Shown here piece by piece: positions 33,243 to 42,888 of a stretch of 64,000 nucleotides of DNA. The first letter of the stretch is position 1. The number at the start of each line of letters is the position of its first letter. The stretch comes from Patescibacteria group bacterium (GTDB lineage Bacteria; Acidobacteriota; Terriglobia; Acidiferrales; UBA7541): contig DATKNR010000030.1 of NCBI GenBank assembly GCA_035541255.1, forward strand, positions 4,171-68,170, given 5' to 3'. The notes beneath the pieces were generated by a model. The model worked only from the letters and a program-made list of their open reading frames with translations, did no database searches and was not told the origin of the DNA. Made by a program: the position numbers and the translations under genes.

Positions 33243-33743
33243 ATGGCTCGTACCAGCTGGGGAGGCTATATGGGAAGCTTTCCATGGGGACCACATGGGC
33301 CGCAGAGCGGACCGAACCAGGTAACGCCTAACCCAACGCCCGCGTATGTTCCACCGCCGCCCATGGAAAGCCCGGGTTCTTTTGGTGTGCCGGCCCCCGC
33401 TTCGTACGGCGGCGGCGGAGGCGGAGTCGTCGGCTATCAGGGGACGTACACCCCTGGTCCGAAGCACTACTGGCTCGCTCTTCCCCTGACTTTTTTCCTG
33501 GGCCCACTGGGATTGTTTTATGCGTCGAAGAAGGGCGCTCTTCTCCTTCTGGTTTTGTTCTTCGCCGGGCCCTATTTGCTGGCCTCCTACGGCCCATCAT
33601 TAGGAATCTTCCCGCGCCATCCTCAGTTCGCTCTGCAGCGCGCCATGATCAACCAGATGTGGTCCCTGTGCGTTGTTCTCTCCATGATCTGGTCGGTGGT
33701 TGCCGTGCGTCTCCATAACAAGGCTCTAAAGGCCCGCAATTAG
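33243..33743 (+). CDS. hypothetical membrane protein with Pro/Gly-rich N-terminus
   Basis: 166-aa ORF. Pro/Gly-rich first 75 aa, then three predicted TM helices. No family recognised, and the start is uncertain. Confidence 0.5.
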   Translation: MARTSWGGYMGSFPWGPHGPQSGPNQVTPNPTPAYVPPPPMESPGSFGVPAPASYGGGGGGVVGYQGTYTPGPKHYWLALPLTFFLGPLGLFYASKKGALLLLVLFFAGPYLLASYGPSLGIFPRHPQFALQRAMINQMWSLCVVLSMIWSVVAVRLHNKALKARN

Positions 33744-33817: not shown

Positions 33818-33836
33818 GTGGGCAATTATTCCCCCC
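33818..33836. promoter_or_regulatory. locus palindrome copy a (GTGGGCAATTATTCCCCCC)
   Basis: Imperfect copy of the GGGGGAAT-N-ATTCCCCC motif, about 190 bp upstream of the GAF-HlyD start. A partial GGGGAGGAATTC lies 7 nt upstream of it. Confidence 0.4.
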
Positions 33837-33920
33837 GCTCGCACGAGTTTTGGAGGTGAGGCCTACAGCGGACGAGACAGCAACACGGCCACTGCCGAAA
33901 AGTGCCCGTGCCGCCTTTTC

Positions 33921-33950
33921 TTGACACCGCCAGAGGCCATTTGCTAGCCT
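33921..33950 (+). promoter_or_regulatory. candidate promoter of the GAF-HlyD/HlyD/M50 operon
   Basis: TTGACA (33921-26), 18-nt spacer, TAGCCT (33945-50). It overlaps a weak GG-N10-GC element (aGGCCAtttgctAGCc, 33935-48). The sigma factor cannot be decided from sequence. Confidence 0.3.
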
Positions 33951-34020
33951 CCCCGCAGAATTTCCGGCGAGTGGTGCTTTCCACAGGGGAGTATACCCGG
34001 GTGGCGACAATGGAGGCTGG

Positions 34021-36441
34021 ATGGAACGGCTCGAGGCTCTTTATGAGCTGGCGACTTCGTATCATTCGTGCCGGGATACGGAAGGCCTCCTGAAAGCATT
34101 TGCGCGCGATCTGCGCGCTCGTCTGGGGCCCCAGGCTGTCCTTCTCTGGCTGAAGGATGGCGGCGAAGAATCCCTGCGCTGCCGTGAAAAGTCGTTCGCG
34201 GCCGGTGAGCGAATCGAACCACGGCAGGAGGGCGAAGCCGATGGCTTGCTGACCGAGGTCCTCGTCTCGCGCGGATCCCGGCGGCTGGGGGCGGCCGAAA
34301 AAAAGGCCCGGCTCCTTTCTCACCTCGATCCCGCCTATCGCGAACGCGTCCAGACAGCGCTGTACGTCTCCATTCCCGGCGCCTCGGGGCCTGCGGGGGT
34401 CGCGGAACTGCTGAACAAAGCCGGCGGCGAGTTCACCACCGAAGACGGCGCGTATCTCGAAGAAGCCGCACGCATGACCGGGCGTGCCCTGGACGCGATT
34501 CGCGCAGCCGAGACGGAGCGCAACGCGCAGTTCGAAACGCTGGAACGGCTCACCGCGCTTTACGATATCGCGCGCATATTCAACTCCACGCTTGAGCGGG
34601 AAGACCTGTGCCCCATCGTGACCAGCAAGATCCGCGACATCCTGGGAGCGCAGGCGTGCAACCTATGGCTTGTGGGCTCTGACGGCGAGTCGCTAGAGTT
34701 TGCCCATCAGGATGGGGAAGACCCCACCACGGACGAGAACACCGAAGTCACGATGGGCGAGGGGTTGGTCGGGGCAGTGGCTCGCGATGGGAAAGGTCTC
34801 CTGGCAGCCGACGCGTCCGTGGAGGCGCTGCTCGATTCCCGGCGCTCCGCGGTGGAGGGATTTACGATCACTTCCGCCATGGCCGCCCCGCTGCTCAAGG
34901 ACGATCGCGTGCTCGGCGTGGTCGAAGTGATCAACAAACTCGACGAGACTCAGTTCGACGATGACGACCTGTTTTTCCTCAACAGCGTGGGGGAGCAGGC
35001 CGGACTCGCCGTCCACAATGCCAACCTGCTGCAGGCCGAGCGCAAAGTGCACGAATTGGGAGCGCTGCTGACGCTGAGCAAGGAAATCACTTCCACGCTG
35101 GATCTCGACCACATTCTCACCACCCTGGTCCATCAGGCGGCGGAAGTGCTTCCCTTCGAACGCTGCACGATCGGCCTTTACGACGGCGCGAAGTTTTATC
35201 TTGCGGCGGTATCCGGTGAGCCGGAAGTGCCGGACACGCCGGAGATGAAGCGCCTTCGCGAGGTTCTGGAATGGGCCGGAGAGGACTACGAAGCGGTATC
35301 CGCGGACTGCGAGGATGGGACCTGGACGAGCGCGCCCGAAAAGCCGGATCCGCGCCTGATTCCTTACCTGACCGAGCGACAGATGAACGGTTTCTACGCA
35401 CGGTCGCTCCGCGACGACCAGGGCACGCTGGGCGTGATCGCGCTGGAGAGTCCTGAAGCGGAGTTTCTGTCCGAAAGCCAGCTCGAAACTCTTGAAATTC
35501 TGGCCAGCCAGGTGACCGTGGCGATTCGAAACGCGCGGTTGTACCAGAACGTCCCGCTGATTCGCGTCTGGCAGCCCGTGGTGGAAACGCGGCAGAAGTT
35601 GCGGTCGGTGGCTGTAGGGCGGCGTATCGAGCTGTTTACCCGGGCGATCGTGGTCGCTGTTCTCCTGGTGGCCGTGCCTTGGCCAATGCGGGTGGACGGG
35701 ACAGCGCACGTCATCCCGGCGCAGCGGAGAGTAATCACTGCGGAGTCGGACGGCATCATCCGGCAGGTCTTCGTCCACGAAGGCGAACGCGTGGAGGCCG
35801 GGGCTCCGCTTGCCCAGCTCGATACTGGTGAAATCAATGTCCGGCTGGAGACCGCGCGGGCGCAACTTGCCCTGGCGCGCCACGATCTTGCCGAGGCTCA
35901 GTATCGGCGGGACATGGAAGGCGCCGGCAGGGCTCGCCTGCGCATGGACATGGCCCAGGCCGCTGTGGATCTGGAGAGTGATCGGCTGGCTCGCGCCCGC
36001 CTCGTCGCGCCCATGGAAGGCCTGGTGGTGACCCCAAAAGTCGAGGAAAAAGTGGGCCGGCTCATTACGCGTGGCGAAACCTTCTGCGAATTGGTCGAGC
36101 CAAACCGCATGGCGGCTGACGTTTTGTTTCCGGAGACTGACGAATCGATGGTCCGGCCCGGCGCTTCCGTTGCCCTGAAGGTCAATGCCCTGCCCTCCGT
36201 CACCTTCCATGGCAAAGTGGAGTGGCTGGGCACGCAGACGGTCGCTTCCGAGGGCGACCAATATTTCCAGGCGCGTGCCGTGTTCGAGAACGCCATGGGT
36301 TTGCGCGACGACATGGTCGGTCAGGCCAAAGTGGGCGTGCGCGGCGGATGGTTCCAGAGCGGCTGGTATCCCGTGGGGTATGTTCTGTTGCGGCCGCCGG
36401 CCCGTTGGCTGTGGCGGAAAGTGTGGACTTGGCTTCCGTGA
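34021..36441 (+). CDS. triple-GAF domain / TM / HlyD-family (membrane-fusion) protein
   Basis: GGAGG SD. Three repeated GAF-like units. Each opens with an LExL..L..I....L helix: LEALYELATSY..., LTALYDIARIFNSTLERE..., LGALLTLSKEITSTLDLD.... One TM (AIVVAVLLVAVPW). Then an MFP lipoyl/coiled-coil/beta-barrel pattern (ITAESDGIIRQVFVHEGERVEAGAPLAQLD ... LVAPMEGLVV). Confidence 0.85.
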   Translation: MERLEALYELATSYHSCRDTEGLLKAFARDLRARLGPQAVLLWLKDGGEESLRCREKSFAAGERIEPRQEGEADGLLTEVLVSRGSRRLGAAEKKARLLSHLDPAYRERVQTALYVSIPGASGPAGVAELLNKAGGEFTTEDGAYLEEAARMTGRALDAIRAAETERNAQFETLERLTALYDIARIFNSTLEREDLCPIVTSKIRDILGAQACNLWLVGSDGESLEFAHQDGEDPTTDENTEVTMGEGLVGAVARDGKGLLAADASVEALLDSRRSAVEGFTITSAMAAPLLKDDRVLGVVEVINKLDETQFDDDDLFFLNSVGEQAGLAVHNANLLQAERKVHELGALLTLSKEITSTLDLDHILTTLVHQAAEVLPFERCTIGLYDGAKFYLAAVSGEPEVPDTPEMKRLREVLEWAGEDYEAVSADCEDGTWTSAPEKPDPRLIPYLTERQMNGFYARSLRDDQGTLGVIALESPEAEFLSESQLETLEILASQVTVAIRNARLYQNVPLIRVWQPVVETRQKLRSVAVGRRIELFTRAIVVAVLLVAVPWPMRVDGTAHVIPAQRRVITAESDGIIRQVFVHEGERVEAGAPLAQLDTGEINVRLETARAQLALARHDLAEAQYRRDMEGAGRARLRMDMAQAAVDLESDRLARARLVAPMEGLVVTPKVEEKVGRLITRGETFCELVEPNRMAADVLFPETDESMVRPGASVALKVNALPSVTFHGKVEWLGTQTVASEGDQYFQARAVFENAMGLRDDMVGQAKVGVRGGWFQSGWYPVGYVLLRPPARWLWRKVWTWLP

Positions 36442-36491
36442 GAGGCAAAGCAGGTGTTGCGTATCTGCGGAACTGGAACGGAGAGACGAGA

Positions 36492-37403
36492 ATGAAATCC
36501 TGGGCACTCTGCCTGTCGGCCGCGCTGCTGGCCGCCATGGCCGCGGGATGCAGCAGCGAGCCCGCACCCGAACGGGCCGCAGCGGCCTCCTCGCGCACGC
36601 CCTCTTCTCATCCGGCGGCTGCGACGGCTTCCGCAGCTTCCGCGCGGGAGATCCCAGCAGTGCTGATGGTGGAGCATGAGGTGGACGTGGTGGCGGAAGG
36701 CGACGGTGAGGTCATCGGGCTAAACGCCGATGAGGGATCGGAAGTGACTGCCGGCGGACTTCTCGCGCGGCTGGATTCACGGCAGGTGCAGGCGCAGCTC
36801 GAGCAAGCGCAGGCCGACCTGAAGATTTCCGAGTACAACGTGAAATACAACGAAGCCGAACTCCACGCCAACGAGTCCCGTCTAAGACGCGCCCAGCTCA
36901 TGTTTAACGAAGGACTCGGCAGCAAGGCCGACCTGGACACCGCCGAATTTCAAGCCAAGGGTTCCGCGTACGACCTGGAAAGCTGGAAGGCAACCGTTGA
37001 GAAGCGCCACGCAGAGGTGAAAGGCCTCGAACTTCAACTTCAAAAAACCCGCATCCTTGCGCCCTTTGCCGGCGTGATCTCGCGGCGATACGTTCGCGAG
37101 GGCGACGTGGTCACCAAGGGAACCAAATGTTTCCGCCTCAGCCAACTGAGCCCGCTGCTCGTGGAATTTCAGGTGCCGGAAACCGATGCCCACAAGCCGG
37201 CTGTGGCACAGCCCGTGAAAGGGACTTTGCTGAGCGATCCAAACCGCTGGTTTGACGCGCGAATCACACGCGTCAGCCCAGTTGTGGATGCGGCTAGCGG
37301 AAGTTACGAGGTCAGGGCCACGCTTCTGGCGCCATCGCCGGAGCTAAAGCCTGGGATGGCCGTTCGGATCGTCTGGCCCGCGCCCTCCACGCCTCACCCC
37401 TGA
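36492..37403 (+). CDS. lipoprotein HlyD/RND-type periplasmic adaptor (membrane-fusion protein)
   Basis: ATG at 36492 after GGAGAG. Lipobox LAAMAAGC. MFP pattern (VVAEGDGEVIGLNADEGSEVTAGGLLARLD, coiled-coil hairpin, ILAPFAGVISRRYVREGDVV). The ORF-track 5' extension (36222) is rejected. Confidence 0.85.
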   Translation: MKSWALCLSAALLAAMAAGCSSEPAPERAAAASSRTPSSHPAAATASAASAREIPAVLMVEHEVDVVAEGDGEVIGLNADEGSEVTAGGLLARLDSRQVQAQLEQAQADLKISEYNVKYNEAELHANESRLRRAQLMFNEGLGSKADLDTAEFQAKGSAYDLESWKATVEKRHAEVKGLELQLQKTRILAPFAGVISRRYVREGDVVTKGTKCFRLSQLSPLLVEFQVPETDAHKPAVAQPVKGTLLSDPNRWFDARITRVSPVVDAASGSYEVRATLLAPSPELKPGMAVRIVWPAPSTPHP

Positions 37404-37406
37404 GCC

Positions 37407-39578
37407 ATGCGGCTCGGTCCCACTTCGCTGCGGGCCCAGGGTGCCGTGGCCCGTGCCCTGCGGCGTCCCAAGCTGCGGGAGGACCTCCAAATCAGTGAGC
37501 AAGTGGTCCGCGGCGAGACCAGCTTTGTCATCAAGGTTCCTCACCTGTTCAAATACGCGCGCTATGGACCGCTGGAATTCAGCGTATTGAAGCAGGCGGA
37601 TGGCACGCGAACCCTCGCGGAAATTGCCGCCGGCGTCAACGCGGAGGCCGGGGAAGAAGCGATCGGCGAAGCTGACGTCGGCGACTTCCTCGAATCCACC
37701 GATCCCGACCTGTGGGAGGAGGGAGCGGGGAAAAAGAATCTTGCCATCCTGGAAAAGATCCGCGAGGAACGACGCGAGCGCGTAAACACGGCAAGCGTTT
37801 TGTACATCCACTTTTCCGCGTGGAATCCCGACCGCACTCTCGAACGGATTCTGCCCTACCTCCGCTGGCTCTTCACCCCGTGGTTCGTCGCGTTCTCGGT
37901 GCTCCTGTACACCGTCATGGCAGTGATCCTGGCAAACAACTGGACGCGCGTGCAGAGCGACACGGTGGCGTTCTACACCTTCACGAATAAGACCCTCTAT
38001 GACATCTGGGAATTCTGGGCGATTTTGTTCGTGGTGATCGCCGTCCATGAGTTCGGCCACGGACTTACCTGCAAGTATTTTGGCGGTGAGGTGCCGCGGA
38101 TGGGCTTCATGCTCATCTATTTCGGGCCGGCCTTTTTCACCGACACGACGGACATGCACGTATTCGATAAGTCGTCGAAGCGGCTATGGGTCATTTTCGC
38201 CGGGCTGTGGATCGAAATGGTCATCTGCGCATTTGCCACGATTGCTTGGGCGCTTGCGCCTCCCGGCTCTTCCTTCAGCGACCTGTGTTACAAGACGGTC
38301 CTGCTCACCGGCGTCTCCGGGCTCATCTTCAACCTGAATCCGCTGATGAAGTACGACGGTTACTACGCGCTCATGCAGTTTCTCGAGATCGACAACATGC
38401 GCGAGGACGCTTTCGATTACCTGAAATTGTGGATGCGGCGCTACGTGCTGAGGCAGGACGTCGAGCTGCCTCAGGTGGGCAAGCGCCGGCGGCGGATCTT
38501 TCTCATTTATGCTTCGCTTGCCGTCCTGTATGGCGCATTCGTGCTGATTCTGGTCGCGGGGTGGCTCAGGAATTTCTTGGTGAATCGCCTCGGCGTGGGC
38601 TGGGGTTATTTAATCACGGCCGTGGCGTTGTACTTCATGACGCGCAAGAGTTTGTTGCCGGCACTTGCCACGGTGCGTAACCGCCTGCCCGTTTGGAAGG
38701 AGCATCTTATGGCCTGGAAAATGTCGAGAACGCAGCAGGTGGGAGTCGCCGCCGCTTTCCTTCTGATTCTGGTCACACCGATTTCTCGCACCACCACCAG
38801 CGAATTCCTGCTCGAGCCAGGCGTGCGAGCCGAGGCCCGTGCGCAGATGTCCGGATGGGTCGACCAGGTGCTCATCCGCTCCGGCGATTCCGTAAACCAG
38901 GGGCAGGTACTGGCCGTGTTGCGCAACCCCGAACTCGATGCCCATCTCCGCGAGCTCTCCGCGCAGCGTTCTCTCGCCGAGAATTCGCTTCTGGCGTCCC
39001 GCCAGCGGCGGGATAACAACGCCGCCGACGTCGCGTTCCGTGAATTCCAGCGTCTGGACGCGGCGGTGCACGAGGCCCGTGTGCAACAGGGTCACCTCTT
39101 GTTGCTGGCGCCGCACACGGGCGTTGTGACCACGCTCGGTGTGGAACAGACCGTAGGCGAATTCCTGCCGCAGGGCGGACTGTTTGCCGTCATCGCAGAC
39201 CGCAGTGTGATGCGCGCGCGCATCCTGGTGCGCGACTGGGAACTTCAGTATGTCACCGACGCCGCGTCCAACTCTCCGTCCGGTATGGAAGCCCTGCTCA
39301 ATGTGCGTTCCTATCCTTATCGCAGCTTTGAGGGCCGGGTGACGCGAATCCTGCCCGCGGCGGCGACGGACGAGCCCGTCACTCTTCCCAAAAGCCCGGA
39401 GAGGGCGGGTCAGCGCCTCAGCAACTACTTTGCTGTGGAGATGGAATTCCAGAATTCCGGGGGCGAATTGCGGGAAGGTATGACGGGCACTGCCAAAATC
39501 TATGGTGCACATCGGCGGCCACTGATCTGGCAGTGGACGCGGGGATCCTGGCGCTGGCTTCGTTCTGTTCTCTGGTAG
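37407..39578 (+). CDS. PqqD-like N-domain / M50 (site-2-protease-type) intramembrane zinc metalloprotease / HlyD-like C-domain fusion
   Basis: Starts 3 nt after the upstream stop. HEFGH zinc motif in a TM helix (FVVIAVHEFGHGLTCKYFGGEV). Second S2P motif FNLNPLMKYDGYY. Multiple TMs. C-terminal MFP-like lipoyl/coiled-coil/barrel (GWVDQVLIRSGDSVNQGQVLAVL ... LLAPHTGVVTT). Confidence 0.85.
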   Translation: MRLGPTSLRAQGAVARALRRPKLREDLQISEQVVRGETSFVIKVPHLFKYARYGPLEFSVLKQADGTRTLAEIAAGVNAEAGEEAIGEADVGDFLESTDPDLWEEGAGKKNLAILEKIREERRERVNTASVLYIHFSAWNPDRTLERILPYLRWLFTPWFVAFSVLLYTVMAVILANNWTRVQSDTVAFYTFTNKTLYDIWEFWAILFVVIAVHEFGHGLTCKYFGGEVPRMGFMLIYFGPAFFTDTTDMHVFDKSSKRLWVIFAGLWIEMVICAFATIAWALAPPGSSFSDLCYKTVLLTGVSGLIFNLNPLMKYDGYYALMQFLEIDNMREDAFDYLKLWMRRYVLRQDVELPQVGKRRRRIFLIYASLAVLYGAFVLILVAGWLRNFLVNRLGVGWGYLITAVALYFMTRKSLLPALATVRNRLPVWKEHLMAWKMSRTQQVGVAAAFLLILVTPISRTTTSEFLLEPGVRAEARAQMSGWVDQVLIRSGDSVNQGQVLAVLRNPELDAHLRELSAQRSLAENSLLASRQRRDNNAADVAFREFQRLDAAVHEARVQQGHLLLLAPHTGVVTTLGVEQTVGEFLPQGGLFAVIADRSVMRARILVRDWELQYVTDAASNSPSGMEALLNVRSYPYRSFEGRVTRILPAAATDEPVTLPKSPERAGQRLSNYFAVEMEFQNSGGELREGMTGTAKIYGAHRRPLIWQWTRGSWRWLRSVLW

Positions 39579-39623
39579 TCGGAAGCGCTCTTTCCGCAGT
39601 CGAGGAGATCGCGCGAAACGTTC

Positions 39624-39660
39624 CAAAAAGTAGAGGCCATCCCAGCGTCGGGATGGCCTC
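39624..39660 (-). terminator. intrinsic terminator of peptide gene P1
   Basis: Minus-strand hairpin GAGGCCATCCC-gacgct-GGGATGGCCTC followed by TACTTTTT. It lies 22 nt after the P1 stop. Confidence 0.7.
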
Positions 39661-39682
39661 CAAGGAAAATGCAAGGGGGCAG

Positions 39683-39751
39683 TTACTTCTTTGCGGAGAG
39701 AGTCTTGGTGCCGGAAAGCTTCTTGCCTCTCTTCAAGCTCTTCTTTGCCAT
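39683..39751 (-). CDS. Lys-rich mini-protein P1 (22 aa): MAKKSLKRGKKLSGTKTLSAKK
   Basis: Hand-translated. ATG 6 nt after GGAGGA. Paralogous to P2 and P3 at protein and DNA level. It has its own sigma-54-type promoter and terminator. The in-frame 78-aa track ORF 39683..39919 is the unsupported long form. Confidence 0.7.
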   Translation of the reverse strand: MAKKSLKRGKKLSGTKTLSAKK

Positions 39752-39808
39752 CTCCCATCCTCCGGGGCACCCGCCTTTCTTCCTGGCTTGCGCCCATCCG
39801 CTGTGTGT

Positions 39809-39826
39809 GAGCATTCTTAGTACCGA
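39809..39826 (-). promoter_or_regulatory. sigma-54-type promoter of P1 (tCGGTACtaagaaTGCTc)
   Basis: GG-N10-GC spacing with a TGC(T) -12 element. The GC lies 60 nt upstream of the P1 ATG. The -24 is weaker than in P2-P4 (CGG rather than TGG). Confidence 0.55.
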
Positions 39827-39952
39827 ATCCGCTGCAATGCAAGTGGCAGTATCCCGTGGGATCGGCTCGGGGCCGGAATCGGAAGTCGCGCTGCCCAAGC
39901 GTCCGGCTTGGAGATCCATTCATTGGCAGTCAGCTCGTGCACTGCGAATCTG

Positions 39953-39995
39953 AAAAACGAGGAGGCCGCCACCGGGGGGAGGTGGCGGCCTTTTG
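39953..39995. terminator. strong GC hairpin flanked by A/T tracts (terminator of the P4 transcript, possibly bidirectional)
   Basis: aaaaacgagga-GGCCGCCACC-gggggga-GGTGGCGGCC-ttttggggg. On the minus strand it is followed by tcctcgttttt. Confidence 0.55.
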
Positions 39996-40165
39996 GGGGT
40001 TACGGGCGGAGTAAAACTCAAAATCTTCGAATGTGATGACGGTCTGTCTCGCTCTGTTCTCCCAGGTCTTCCTTCTCATTCGTAAGCAGATTCAACTTCC
40101 AGCCATCGAAACCTTTTCCGCCTTGCGATCTCTCCAGACTGCGTCAATCAGGACTCAACGACTTA

Positions 40166-40183
40166 GTGCATTTTGCGAGCCAA
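40166..40183 (-). promoter_or_regulatory. fourth sigma-54-type promoter (tTGGCTCgcaaaaTGCAc) without a MAKK ORF
   Basis: Same GG-N10-GC/TGCA architecture as the P2 and P3 promoters. Downstream, at the equivalent distance (62 nt), there is only ATG GCT GGA AGT TGA. Confidence 0.5.
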
Positions 40184-40383
40184 ACGCAGAAGCGTGCTGA
40201 GTCCCCTCCCACACCCGGAAACAAAGCATTTATGGCCTGCTTCCGTCCGCACACCGGGGGAAAAACTCCGCCCGAGGGAGAAATCACCCCCTTCCGGAAA
40301 ATGCACTTGGGAGAACAAGAGCGCCATCACAATGCAGCGGAGGCGTGGCGTGGGACGCGGGGAGAAATTCCGGTTGTCGTGCA

Positions 40384-40419
40384 GGCAAAACAAAAGGGCC
40401 ATCCCGGATGGGATGGCCC
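40384..40419 (-). terminator. intrinsic terminator of peptide gene P2
   Basis: Minus-strand hairpin GGGCCATCCC-atcc-GGGATGGCCC followed by TTTTGTTTTG. It lies 27 nt after the P2 stop. Confidence 0.7.
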
Positions 40420-40446
40420 CGAAAGCGTTCAATTCAAGCTGTTCAG

Positions 40447-40533
40447 TTACCGAAGTCCCCGCATGTTATTTACGGCAGACAGGGTCTTCGAAGGCGCCAG
40501 CTTCTTGCCCTTCTTCAATTCTTTCTTCGCCAT
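40447..40533 (-). CDS. Lys-rich mini-protein P2 (28 aa): MAKKELKKGKKLAPSKTLSAVNNMRGLR
   Basis: Hand-translated. ATG 5 nt after GGGAGGA. The first 39 nt are nearly identical to P3. It has its own sigma-54-type promoter and terminator. Confidence 0.7.
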   Translation of the reverse strand: MAKKELKKGKKLAPSKTLSAVNNMRGLR

Positions 40534-40584
40534 GTGAATCCTCCCGGTGGATTTGGATATCGTTTACCTGCTTCACTGAAGTAG

Positions 40585-40602
40585 TAGCATTCCTGGGGCC
40601 AA
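40585..40602 (-). promoter_or_regulatory. sigma-54-type promoter of P2 (tTGGCCCcaggaaTGCTa)
   Basis: TGGC at -24 and TGCT at -12 with exact GG-N10-GC spacing. The GC lies 54 nt upstream of the ATG. The 5' UTR shares the block ATCCAAATCCA..GGAGGATTC with P3. Confidence 0.65.
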
Positions 40603-40714
40603 AGTTTGGGAAGATTTATGTCAATCTGGTTGTTCAATATAAACGGGTTAGCTTCGACGCTGGACGACCGCTGATTCGGGTTTGGCGTGCTTCGGGGCAT
40701 TCCTTGGCCCTTGA

Positions 40715-40732
40715 GGGGGAATAATTTCCACC
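40715..40732. promoter_or_regulatory. locus palindrome copy b (GGGGGAATAATTTCCACC), putative enhancer/UAS for P2
   Basis: Its centre lies about 123 bp upstream of the -24 GG of the P2 promoter. That is a typical bEBP enhancer distance. Confidence 0.5.
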
Positions 40733-40877
40733 GCTTTGGCCTGCTGACTGGCATGGTATCGAATCTCGTTGGCGAGCAAACGCGCCAGGACCGGAAGATG
40801 GCGCGAACAGGGAAGAGGGGAACCGCCTGAACGTTGCTGACAGATCAGGGAAGGGGATTGCCCATCTGTGCCGGAAA

Positions 40878-40913
40878 CGCAAAAGAAAAGGGCCACCCGG
40901 GTGTGGGTGGCCC
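40878..40913 (-). terminator. intrinsic terminator of peptide gene P3
   Basis: Minus-strand hairpin GGGCCACCC-acaccc-GGGTGGCCC followed by TTTTCTTTTG. It lies 20 nt after the P3 stop. Confidence 0.7.
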
Positions 40914-40933
40914 TTTGACCTCAGAAACTTGGA

Positions 40934-41008
40934 CTAGTAGGTGCCGCGTCCACCGAGGCTCTTCGTGCCGGCCAGCTTCTTGCCCTTCTTCAACGCTTTC
41001 TTCGCCAT
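40934..41008 (-). CDS. Lys-rich mini-protein P3 (24 aa): MAKKALKKGKKLAGTKSLGGRGTY
   Basis: Hand-translated. ATG 6 nt after GGAGGA. Paralogous to P1 and P2. It has its own sigma-54-type promoter and terminator. Confidence 0.7.
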   Translation of the reverse strand: MAKKALKKGKKLAGTKSLGGRGTY

Positions 41009-41059
41009 TTCGAATCCTCCAACTGGATTTGATAGGCCCCTGAGGGCTGAATGAGAGTC

Positions 41060-41077
41060 TTGCACTTCTCTTACCAA
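41060..41077 (-). promoter_or_regulatory. sigma-54-type promoter of P3 (tTGGTAAgagaagTGCAa)
   Basis: GG-N10-GC with a TGCA -12 element. The GC lies 54 nt upstream of the ATG, the same distance as in P2. Confidence 0.65.
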
Positions 41078-41187
41078 ATCCCGCGGCATTTTTTCCACAG
41101 CCGCCTGAAGCAAACAATGGGCTTAGAGGCGACGAAGTTGGGCACGCGGCCAAGAAAAAGTGGAAAAGGGGAGAAAGCAGGTCGTCA

Positions 41188-41204
41188 GGGGGAATTATTC
41201 CCCC
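41188..41204. promoter_or_regulatory. locus palindrome copy c (GGGGGAATTATTCCCCC, perfect 8-1-8), putative enhancer/UAS for P3
   Basis: Perfect inverted repeat. Its centre lies about 121 bp upstream of the -24 GG of the P3 promoter, matching the copy b/P2 geometry. Confidence 0.55.
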
Positions 41205-41366
41205 ATGGATGCCACCAGGAGAGGCTCTCATAGGCGATTCGCTCCCGGGGCTTCGTCCGCCTAATTTGGGAAATCGCAGAAGGCGGCCCCGAGTTGGTGG
41301 TTTTGCGGTGGCAAAAGGTGCCTGTACTTGGGGGGACGAGCCGAATTACCACAGGAGCTTCGGAGA

Positions 41367-42755
41367 CTATAATTGGTGCTTCCGGCAGAGATATTTCATC
41401 CGGTCTTTGTTCACACCCAGCAGTCTTGCCGCCTGGATTTTCACACCGGAGGCCTGTGCCAGCGCGGTCTCCACCCACTTTTTTTCGTAGGTTTCGAGCT
41501 CGGCTTCTAAGTCGAATCCGGAAGGTGGCAGGCGGAAACGGCCCCGCGCATCCCGGGTGGCGGCCTGCACGATGTCCCGGGGCAGATCACTCAGTTCTAT
41601 CCTGTCCCCATCCGTCATCAGCACGATGCGCTGCACCGCATTCTCCAGCTCGCGGACATTTCCAGGCCAGCGGTAGTTTTGCAGCGCCTGCATGGCTTCT
41701 TCGCTCACGGTCTTGGGTTCCGAGTGATTTGCCACGCAATACACGCGCACAAAATGGTTCACCAGCAGCGGAATATCCGACTCGCGCTCCCGCAGCGGCG
41801 GCAGAAACACGGGGACCACGTGAATCCGGAAGTACAAGTCTTCCCGGAACCGTTTTTCCTCGACTGCCGCTTCCAAATCCTCGTTCGTCGCTGTGAGCAG
41901 CCGAAAGTCCACTGCCAGCGGCCGTTTGCCGCCCAGATGAATCACCGCGTGGTCCTCCAGCACGCGCAGCAGCTTGCTCTGCAATGCCGGGGTCAGCGTA
42001 CCAATTTCGTCCAGGAACAGAGTTCCCCGGTGCGCCAACTCGATGCGTCCTTCCTTGCTTTCCGTGGCGCCGGTAAATGCCCCCTTCTCGTACCCGAAAA
42101 GCTCCGCCTCCATCAGGGTTTCCGGCAGTGCAGCGCAATTCACGCTGATAAAGGGACGTGCGCGCCGCTCGCTTAGGTCGTGGATGGCGTGCGCCACCAG
42201 CTCTTTTCCCGTTCCGCTCTCTCCGCGGATGCACACCGTGGTTGTTTTGGGAGCCACACGGCGGACCAGGTCGAAGATTGGCCGCATGGCGTCGCTCGCG
42301 CCAATCAGGTTTCCCAGCGATTCCTTCCGCTGGATCTGCTCCCGCAGGATGCGGTTCTCCCGTTCCACCCGCTGCTTTTCCACGGCCCGGTCCAGAAAGG
42401 GACGGAAAACGTCAGGGTCAATGGGGTGTGCGAAAAAATCGTACGCGCCCGATTCCATCGCGCGGACAGCCGTGGCTTTGCGCGGGTCGCGGCTCAGGAT
42501 TACGACCATCGTGTCCATCTCGCGGGAGCGCAGCCGTTCGACGAGCGCCTCGAACCGGCGGAAGCTCGCGGCCCCGGGTTCCAGGTTGTACAGGATCAAA
42601 TCGGGCCGCGCTTCATCGATCAACGGCCATTCCGATTCTTCCTCGGTGGACTGGTAGATCTCATAATCCGGGAGAAGCCGGCTCACCACCGGCTGCAGAC
42701 CGCTCACGTCGTTCGTCATGATGACGACGTGGCAGCGGCTTGGGTTGGGGGACAT
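41367..42755 (-). CDS. sigma-54 enhancer-binding protein with degenerate receiver domain
   Basis: AAA+ core ([27 protein letters not shown]) and C-terminal HTH (SGVKIQAARLLGVNKDRMKYL). The N-terminal REC-like fold has Asn in place of the phospho-Asp (PDLILYNLEP). ATG at 42755 was chosen because the track TTG start (42842) coincides with the -35 hexamer. Confidence 0.9.
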   Translation of the reverse strand: MSPNPSRCHVVIMTNDVSGLQPVVSRLLPDYEIYQSTEEESEWPLIDEARPDLILYNLEPGAASFRRFEALVERLRSREMDTMVVILSRDPRKATAVRAMESGAYDFFAHPIDPDVFRPFLDRAVEKQRVERENRILREQIQRKESLGNLIGASDAMRPIFDLVRRVAPKTTTVCIRGESGTGKELVAHAIHDLSERRARPFISVNCAALPETLMEAELFGYEKGAFTGATESKEGRIELAHRGTLFLDEIGTLTPALQSKLLRVLEDHAVIHLGGKRPLAVDFRLLTATNEDLEAAVEEKRFREDLYFRIHVVPVFLPPLRERESDIPLLVNHFVRVYCVANHSEPKTVSEEAMQALQNYRWPGNVRELENAVQRIVLMTDGDRIELSDLPRDIVQAATRDARGRFRLPPSGFDLEAELETYEKKWVETALAQASGVKIQAARLLGVNKDRMKYLCRKHQL

Positions 42756-42813
42756 ATGGGACTCGAGGTGCGTTGCCGGCCGCTCACAGGGCAGGCTCGC
42801 GCAGGCAGGCGCG

Positions 42814-42842
42814 ATTCTAGGAAGCGCCGCCCGGGTTGTCAA
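42814..42842 (-). promoter_or_regulatory. sigma-70-type promoter of the EBP gene
   Basis: On the minus strand: TTGACA (42842-42837), 17-nt spacer, TAGAAT (42819-42814). The -10 lies about 59 nt upstream of ATG 42755. Confidence 0.5.
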
Positions 42843-42871
42843 ATGAGATTGTCAGGCGAGCTACGCCCTGT

Positions 42872-42888
42872 GGTGGAATAATTTCCCC
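42872..42888. promoter_or_regulatory. locus palindrome copy d (GGTGGAATAATTTCCCC) just upstream of the EBP promoter
   Basis: Same GGAATAATTTCC core as copy b. It lies 30 bp upstream of the -35 hexamer, so autoregulation is plausible. Confidence 0.45.

Follow-up and report, generated by a model that had tools for sequence, protein, structure and literature searches.

A 64-kb window (the whole stretch of 64,000 nucleotides analysed here, from contig DATKNR010000030.1 of assembly GCA_035541255.1) carries four copies, a to d, of a 17-bp palindrome, GGGGGAAT-N-ATTCCCCC. They lie in a locus that comprises an operon encoding HlyD-type proteins, a set of short peptide genes with sigma-54 promoters and, convergent with the operon, the gene of a bacterial enhancer-binding protein (EBP). 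We interpret the palindrome, with a probability of about 0.82, as a putative upstream activator site (UAS), or enhancer, of a locus-specific sigma-54 regulon that would be controlled via the adjacent EBP. This interpretation is favoured because the sites keep a conserved position with respect to the promoters, because their density is raised in the peptide intergenic region, because the EBP gene is kept in synteny, and because half-site and recognition helix covary. As predicted enhancers, copies b and c, which lie upstream of peptide promoters P2 and P3, are strongly supported. The four copies are the following:

33818..33836, strand unassigned: copy a, GTGGGCAATTATTCCCCCC; agrees in 14 of 16 positions; the conserved operon TTGACA follows 94 bp downstream
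40715..40732, strand unassigned: copy b, GGGGGAATAATTTCCACC; centre 40723; distal UAS of peptide promoter P2
41188..41204, strand unassigned: copy c, GGGGGAATTATTCCCCC; a perfect 8-1-8 palindrome; centre 41196; distal UAS of P3
42872..42888, strand unassigned: copy d, GGTGGAATAATTTCCCC; 30 bp upstream of the sigma-70 -35 element of the EBP gene

All four were found exactly where a preliminary description of this DNA had placed them, copy c with the perfect 8-1-8 symmetry ascribed to it. The repetition is real and far from what chance would produce. A pattern search with mismatches, proposed in that description as a measure of local enrichment, was run on the 64 kb: without mismatch, the pattern GGNGGAATNATTNCC matches copies a to d and nothing else, and with up to two mismatches it gives 19 matches against 5.35 expected, a number reached by none of 100 shuffles of the window. 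Likewise, the 17-mers that agree with GGGGGAATNATTCCCCC in at least 14 of 16 positions number four, all in this locus, where 0.04 would be expected from 200 first-order Markov simulations of the window. The next-best site (13/16, at 40256-40272) also falls within the locus, and no site of 13/16 or better is found outside it in the 64 kb.

The stretch between the operon and the EBP gene is occupied by four short cassettes, monocistronic and all on the minus strand. Each has the same layout, with a -24/-12 promoter, a Shine-Dalgarno sequence and ATG 68-74 nt beyond it, a small open reading frame (ORF) and an intrinsic terminator. Sigma-54 promoters with GG-N10-GC spacing are found on the minus strand only, each with a Shine-Dalgarno sequence, ATG and Lys-rich ORF at +67 to +78 and a terminator behind. 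The cassettes contain the following features:

41061..41076, minus strand: sigma-54 promoter P3, TGGTAAGAGAAGTGCA
40586..40601, minus strand: sigma-54 promoter P2, TGGCCCCAGGAATGCT
40167..40182, minus strand: sigma-54 promoter P1, TGGCTCGCAAAATGCA; followed in this genome by a peptide ORF that has decayed
39810..39825, minus strand: fourth promoter, CGGTACTAAGAATGCT
40934..41008, minus strand: P3 peptide gene, MAKKALKKGKKLAGTKSLGGRGTY
40447..40533, minus strand: P2 peptide gene, MAKKELKKGKKLAPSKTLSAVNNMRGLR
39683..39751, minus strand: fourth peptide gene, Lys-rich, MAKKSLKRGKKLSGTKTLSAKK
39631-39662, 39963-39991, 40395-40420 and 40887-40916, minus strand: four intrinsic terminators, one per cassette
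41160..41180, minus strand: second site of P3, degenerate, CTTTCTCCCCTTTTCCAC, at about -100
40694..40712, minus strand: second site of P2, weak, GGGCCAAGGAATGCCCC, centre at about -101, read from the sequence
40275..40291, minus strand: degenerate site of P1, GGGGGTGATTTCTCCCT, centre at -101
40256..40272, minus strand: degenerate site of P1, GGCGGAGTTTTTCCCCC, centre at -82, 13/16

The centre of copy b lies 123-124 bp from the -24 GG of P2 (40600/40599), or at -122 when counted from the T of TGG, and the centre of copy c lies 121-122 bp from the GG of P3 (41075/41074), or at -120 from the T of TGG. These re-measured distances agree with the values of about 123 and 121 bp given originally. 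In the clade to which the window belongs, a degenerate site is found about 20 bp downstream of the strong palindrome at about -120. The P2 and P3 peptides are Lys-rich and 24-28 residues long. A scan of the whole window with the general sigma-54 consensus, allowing three mismatches, showed no enrichment (101 matches versus 110 expected), so that only context, i.e. the strand, the ORF behind and the UAS, separates real promoters from the other matches.

The same arrangement was followed in related genomes. A genome scan gave at least 560 relatives, the best 80 loci of which (L001-L080, about 18 kb each) were analysed together with three loci for two closer relatives, and the protein encoded by the third gene of the operon, an M50-HlyD fusion, has more than 460 relatives, all from Acidobacteriota where the source names the organism. 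The three-gene operon is kept in all loci that extend far enough. The convergent EBP gene is kept in 74 of the 80, and most of the others are cut off by a contig edge before it is reached. The space between the M50-HlyD and EBP genes holds one to five sigma-54 promoters per locus, all on the minus strand; the peptide intergenic regions contain 158 GG-N10-GC promoter sites on that strand, the plus strand having 0-2 per locus. Across the family these promoters have the consensus TGGC-N7-TTGCA, and behind 120 of the 158 a Lys-rich ORF is present at +55 to +95. A search for inverted repeats upstream of the promoters, made free of any motif, recovered the palindrome of the window in several of the closest relatives and, at most other loci, a different palindrome of the same 8-1-8 shape, TGTTGAAATTTTCAACA or CGTTGAATTATTCAACG.

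When sites of both motif types were counted, with at most two mismatches in 12 positions, 110 of 120 cassettes from more than 70 genomes proved to have a palindrome with its centre between -130 and -95, versus 0 and 1 in two control windows of equal width (-250..-215 and -60..-25). The site centres form two sharp peaks, at -123 (±2) and -104 (±1). Among the 106 cassettes with sites of the GTTGAA type (EBP helix GVDRNRLNY), the distal site occurs in 77, the proximal one in 46 and both in 28. The right half of the second P3 site, TTTTCTCCCC, recurs in L081, L083, L001, L002, L004 and L005. Site density amounts to 1.5/kb in the peptide intergenic region versus 0.04-0.14/kb in coding and flanking DNA, a 10- to 40-fold difference.

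These counts also bear on the idea that the motif is a dispersed repeat of the repetitive extragenic palindromic (REP) kind, or an RNA hairpin or terminator, rather than an enhancer bound by a protein. The perfect inverted repeat could form a stem of 7 bp with a loop of 3 nt, and copy c lies 163 nt downstream of the stop codon of the EBP gene, where no separate terminator was detected. We nevertheless regard this explanation as very improbable. A common REP-like repeat, named at the outset among the findings that would speak against an enhancer, is contradicted by the distribution of the motif, which has no copy outside the locus in the 64 kb or in the flanks of the 80 related loci of about 18 kb, where it is confined to the peptide intergenic region. 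As for termination, none of copies a to d is followed by a run of T, the terminator scan does not call the palindromes, and separate G+C-rich hairpins sit behind each peptide gene. The motif of the distant clade, the AT-rich TGTTGAAATTTTCAACA, would make a poor hairpin, and yet its distance to the promoter is fixed within about 2 bp.

If the palindrome is a binding site, the EBP is the foremost candidate for its reader: it is the only DNA-binding protein kept in synteny. Its gene is the following:

41367..42755, minus strand: EBP gene, 462 aa, encoding a pseudo-receiver, an AAA+ sigma-54 interaction domain with GAFTGA and a Fis-type helix-turn-helix (HTH) with the recognition helix GVNKDRMKYLCRK

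The helix and the half-site differ together between clades. In the window and in L001, L002 and L005-L008, the helix reads GVN(K/R)D(R/K)MKYLCRK and the half-site xGGGGAAw, the latter in 13 of the 16 half-sites scored (L005 was judged by eye). In 51 other loci the helix is GVDRNRLNYLCRK (GVDRNRLNY) and the half-site xGTTGAAw, the GGG form being found in 0 of 216 half-sites. From an alignment to Fis and NtrC, we place the four differing residues at the beginning of the recognition helix, in positions which in Fis make contacts to bases. This covariation is correlative, and a reading of the palindrome by this EBP would lead one to expect it.

It could be argued that the palindrome is the operator of another, unlinked factor, for instance a global regulator, with the EBP binding elsewhere or acting from solution. 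AT-cored palindromes with G/C flanks are recognised by many HTH families, and DNA binding is dispensable for some EBPs, among them PspF variants and FlgR. We consider this improbable, since no DNA-binding protein other than the EBP is syntenic, and the EBP has retained an HTH at its C-terminus, with a recognition helix that varies together with the half-site. The sites, moreover, lie exactly at enhancer distance and in tandem, and a clade-specific motif is found upstream of the EBP gene itself in seven genomes (the window and six relatives).

The reading of the palindrome as an enhancer bound by the EBP also fits what is expected of upstream activator sites, namely GG/GC promoters, dyad sites at about 80-150 bp, often in tandem, and an AAA+ activator with GAFTGA and an HTH; each of these has its counterpart in the locus. 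NtrC-type HTH domains usually act on cooperative sites placed in tandem about 100 bp upstream of the sigma-54 site (PMC11407668). According to the mechanism that we propose, EBP dimers would bind the 17-bp palindrome through the Fis-type HTH, mainly at the site about 120 bp upstream of -24 and also at the weaker site about 20 bp closer. The bound dimers would form an active AAA+ ring and loop to the sigma-54 RNA polymerase, and the promoters of the monocistronic genes for Lys-rich peptides of 22-28 aa would be opened. Processing and export of these peptides presumably fall to the M50-HlyD, HlyD and GAF-HlyD proteins. The EBP probably also binds copy d, by its own sigma-70 promoter, which would produce a feedback of either sign on its own expression, and copy a would be a lineage-specific extra site of uncertain function.

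Several points weigh against this scheme. The fourth cassette has a promoter and no site, so that the simple scheme is not universal. Copy a lies upstream of a sigma-70-like promoter, is accompanied by no sigma-54 promoter and is not conserved, and the way in which copy d might act at about -73 of a sigma-70 promoter is not evident. The covariation of helix and half-site amounts to essentially one evolutionary switch between two clades, and the loci are not independent. The patterns used for counting were derived from the same loci; the positional peaks and the control windows are independent of that choice. Finally, the match of the EBP to Pfam HTH_8 falls just under the gathering score (20.4 versus 22 bits). 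The preliminary description had brought all four copies into one regulon, in which the EBP would activate the peptide genes and possibly regulate itself and control the operon. The part of this proposal that joins the EBP, the palindrome and the peptide promoters is supported by the 110 of 120 cassettes, the site density, the synteny and the covariation; autoregulation is plausible, and control of the operon lacks support.

P1 and the fourth promoter had both been described as lacking a clear copy. This holds for the fourth promoter, upstream of which no palindrome is found in the window or in any relative. It holds only in part for P1, whose two degenerate sites, the one at 40275-40291 having been quoted earlier as about 40276-40291, both align with clearer orthologous sites in L081, L001 and L002. 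P1 has a putative enhancer, displaced by about 20 bp towards the promoter. A further degenerate string quoted earlier, GGGGAGAAATTCC (about 40359-40371), lies at roughly -180 from P1. The P1 cassette (39990-40182, minus strand) keeps its promoter, degenerate UAS and terminator, and its ORF is broken (MAGS*); the orthologous cassettes encode MSKTGTALKKGKKLEPAKSL... (L081) and MAKAGTVLKKGKKLAAAKTL... (L001). It is probably a decaying paralogue. Just before its terminator (about 39985-40022, minus strand), there is a block, TTTGAGTTTTACTCCGCCCGTAACCCCCAAAAGGCCGCC, which has equivalents in L081, L001, L002 and L004 and among these relatives is better conserved than the coding region of the peptide, which precedes it. 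The block could represent an element of the 3' untranslated region or a degenerate half-site. The fourth promoter has an atypical -24 element (CGGTAC in the window; TGGCGT in the L001 orthologue, TGGCGTTAAGAATGCT). Its cassette, which adjoins the M50-HlyD gene and has no UAS, is kept in L081, L001, L002 and L004, and the P1 enhancer, at a distance of about 450 bp, might serve to activate it.

The EBP gene has the following promoter, with copy d upstream of it:

42814..42842, minus strand: sigma-70-type promoter of the EBP gene, TTGACA-17-TAGAAT, near-consensus; kept in L001 and L002

The proximal edge of the copy (42872) is 30 bp from the 5' end of the -35 element (42842), at about -73 from the inferred transcription start. 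In the window, L001, L002, L081 and L083, copy d forms a conserved island (GGGGAAATTATTCCACC, coding strand) amid diverged sequence, and in the distant loci L046 and L077 the EBP gene is preceded, at about 80-100 bp, by the motif type proper to these loci, GTTGAAAATGTCAAC. No sigma-54 promoter was found 120 bp from copy d on reading the sequence. The earlier suggestion that the EBP regulates its own gene is plausible on these grounds, given a site conserved in five close genomes and the matching motif type in two distant ones; such autoregulation through copy d would concern some lineages and not be universal.

The operon and the block upstream of it have the following features:

34021..39578, plus strand: three-gene operon
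34021-36441, plus strand: GAF-GAF-HlyD gene
about 36492-37403, plus strand: HlyD gene
37407-39578, plus strand: M50 metalloprotease-HlyD fusion gene
33921..33950, plus strand: sigma-70-like block, TTGACA-N18-(TGC)TAGCCT, conserved upstream of the operon

The operon supplies three periplasmic adaptor modules of the HlyD type, of which one carries two cytoplasmic GAF domains and another the M50 protease as fusion partner. The third gene encodes an intramembrane metalloprotease with HExxH fused to the HlyD module. [quoted passage not shown] No ABC, RND or MFS pump and no outer-membrane factor is found among the annotated genes of the locus.

Control of this operon by the palindrome, as envisaged in the preliminary description, is unsupported. 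When the operon leaders of the window and L001-L004 are aligned, the -35/-10 block aligns and the palindrome region does not; the promoter scan makes no call at 33921..33950, where the -10 element matches in only 3 of 6 positions. The copy a site is absent from L001-L004 by alignment and from the inspected upstream sequence of L081, the closest relative that has the operon upstream region (its M50-HlyD protein is 86% identical), and operon upstream regions show background site density throughout the family. A candidate sigma-54 promoter in the vicinity of copy a, AGGCCATTTGCTAGCC, shows the GG-N10-GC spacing in the window and agrees with the consensus in only 6 of 12 positions; its spacing is lost in L001-L004 and its GC in L081, and it was rejected in favour of the sigma-70-type block. 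We lean slightly, therefore, towards a regulon in which copies b, c and d function and copy a, a chance or decaying match, has no regulatory role, the export operon lying outside. The absence of copy a from the five relatives, the background density of the leaders and a conserved sigma-70-like block with no sigma-54 promoter all point this way. Against it stands the chance of only about 4e-4 that a match of at least 14/16 arises in the 277-nt operon leader (Markov model from the intergenic DNA of the locus), which makes the recent gain of a real binding site likelier than pure chance for copy a. Our best guess is that copy a is a recent, lineage-specific site. Directly upstream of it lies an ORF of 166 aa (33243-33743, plus strand) with no Pfam or NCBIfam match, which is present in L081 (165 aa) and gives no tblastn match (E <= 1e-10) in L001-L080.

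The EBP contains a full Sigma54_activat domain (E = 7e-67), GAFTGA included, and its closest solved relatives are NifA, NtrC1, ZraR and LuxO. It scores under the NCBIfam cut-offs for NtrC (365 versus 558.6), PrsR and LuxO; the best-scoring model, TIGR02915 (PrsR, the PEP-CTERM-box response regulator), gives 404.5 bits versus a cut-off of 502.6. The match to Response_reg (22.3 bits) is likewise under its cut-off of 30.2. In the pseudo-receiver (residues 10-120), the acidic pocket is T-N-D in the window, and the residues of a phosphorylation-controlled NtrC-type receiver (Asp, T/S, K) are not in place. The phospho-acceptor position (the D54 equivalent) is N57 in the window and, among 70 homologues, G in 36, A in 27, D in 4 and N in 3; the conserved receiver Lys is H in the window, and K in 47, Q in 20 and H in 3 of the homologues. 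As the receiver is without the phospho-acceptor Asp, the EBP is probably not activated by phosphotransfer. No histidine kinase gene is found among the annotated genes flanking the locus. The GAF-GAF-HlyD protein may, speculatively, be a candidate sensor for EBP activation. An antisense sigma-70-like site (TTACCA-16-TATAAT, 10/12 matches, 41346-41373, plus strand), which may be due to chance, points into the 3' end of the EBP gene.

Among the systems closest to this layout is the NtrC (NRI)/glnAp2 enhancer, with other UAS sites of the NtrC family, where 17-bp dyad sites also occur in tandem about 100-140 bp upstream of a -24/-12 promoter, the geometry measured here. NtrC dimers bind through a Fis-type C-terminal HTH and nucleate the AAA+ ring, and the activator gene is regulated through its own sites. 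The differences lie in the sites (GGGGGAAT-N-ATTCCCCC or GTTGAA-N3-TTCAAC here, versus TGCACC-N5-GGTGCA for NtrC), in a receiver without phospho-acceptor Asp and with no kinase gene among the annotated flanking genes, and in the targets, which are tiny peptide genes and not nitrogen-assimilation genes. The LuxO-Qrr system of Vibrio shares the principle of one NtrC-type EBP serving several short, monocistronic, paralogous sigma-54 genes, each with its own palindrome and terminator. However, the Qrr products are non-coding small RNAs, whereas the cassettes described here are predicted to be translated into Lys-rich peptides, with a Shine-Dalgarno sequence and ATG at a fixed distance, and LuxO is controlled by phosphorylation. 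The LuxO consensus is probably TTGCA-N3-TGCAA. PspF binds UAS sites within its own sigma-70 promoter region and is thereby autoregulated. Copy d is analogous to this own-promoter UAS, with the difference that it lies upstream (about -73) and does not overlap the sigma-70 promoter. As to PrsR, the EBP, being under the TIGR02915 cut-off, is not its equivalog, and no PEP-CTERM context is present here.

On the side of the peptides, the nearest parallels are M50-type RiPP or bacteriocin loci (daptide, YydH/LiaK), which likewise have multiple short precursors with a conserved N-terminus and a hypervariable C-terminus, adjoining an intramembrane HExxH metalloprotease and HlyD-type adaptors. In contrast to those loci, the protease is here fused to an HlyD module and the conserved core is without a modification enzyme or ABC transporter; regulation by sigma-54 and an EBP is not a described feature of such loci. 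Full-text searches found no literature description of this Acidobacteria system of peptides, M50-HlyD protein and EBP, which is not proof of novelty. The motif looks new and the kind of enhancer classical, and the surrounding peptide system looks undescribed.

A wider reading, to which we give slightly less than an even chance, is that the palindromes are the cis-regulatory code of an undescribed peptide system widespread in Acidobacteriota. A phosphorylation-independent EBP with a pseudo-receiver would, together with sigma-54, drive arrays of one to five monocistronic genes, and the M50-HlyD protein, the HlyD protein and the GAF-GAF-HlyD sensor would mature and export the peptides as signals or bacteriocins. 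If this is true, the switch between NKD..K/GGGGAA and DRN..N/GTTGAA would be a readable recognition code for the Fis-type HTH of EBPs. The sites, their spacing, their tandem layout and the predicted pairing of helix with half-site add up to an enhancer model that can be tested, for a family of EBPs that is uncharacterised and belongs to a soil phylum little studied so far. The combination of promoter and UAS is a reliable signature for genes of 20-40 aa peptides, mostly missed by gene callers, and it delimits the regulon to the peptide genes, probably the EBP gene and probably not the export operon. If the peptides turn out to be signals or toxins that are secreted, their induction in a heterologous host could be approached through the UAS/EBP pair.

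The cassettes and their products call for a few further observations. In the close relative L083 (3329-7789), two peptide cassettes are separated by an insertion of an aldo-keto reductase gene and a JmjC/cupin gene, and each of the two keeps its own palindrome and promoter, which shows the cassettes to be self-contained modules. NCBIfam gave no match for eight peptides, six of them even at E = 10. The peptides of the family have a conserved, Lys-rich N-terminus (MAKKTLKKSKKIEATKPL..., generalised as MAKKxLKKxKKL..TKPL) and a short, hypervariable C-terminus of 4-20 residues. Some longer peptides in L006 and L007/L008 contain internal tandem repeats, e.g. ...GALTRPGALTRPGALTRPGVIN, ...RGAGVLQRGAGVLQRGAGVLQRG and ...KHVLNLKHVLNLKK, and many distant peptides repeat a (V/T)KPL(M/I) motif; such repeats suggest that each precursor may give several cleavage products.

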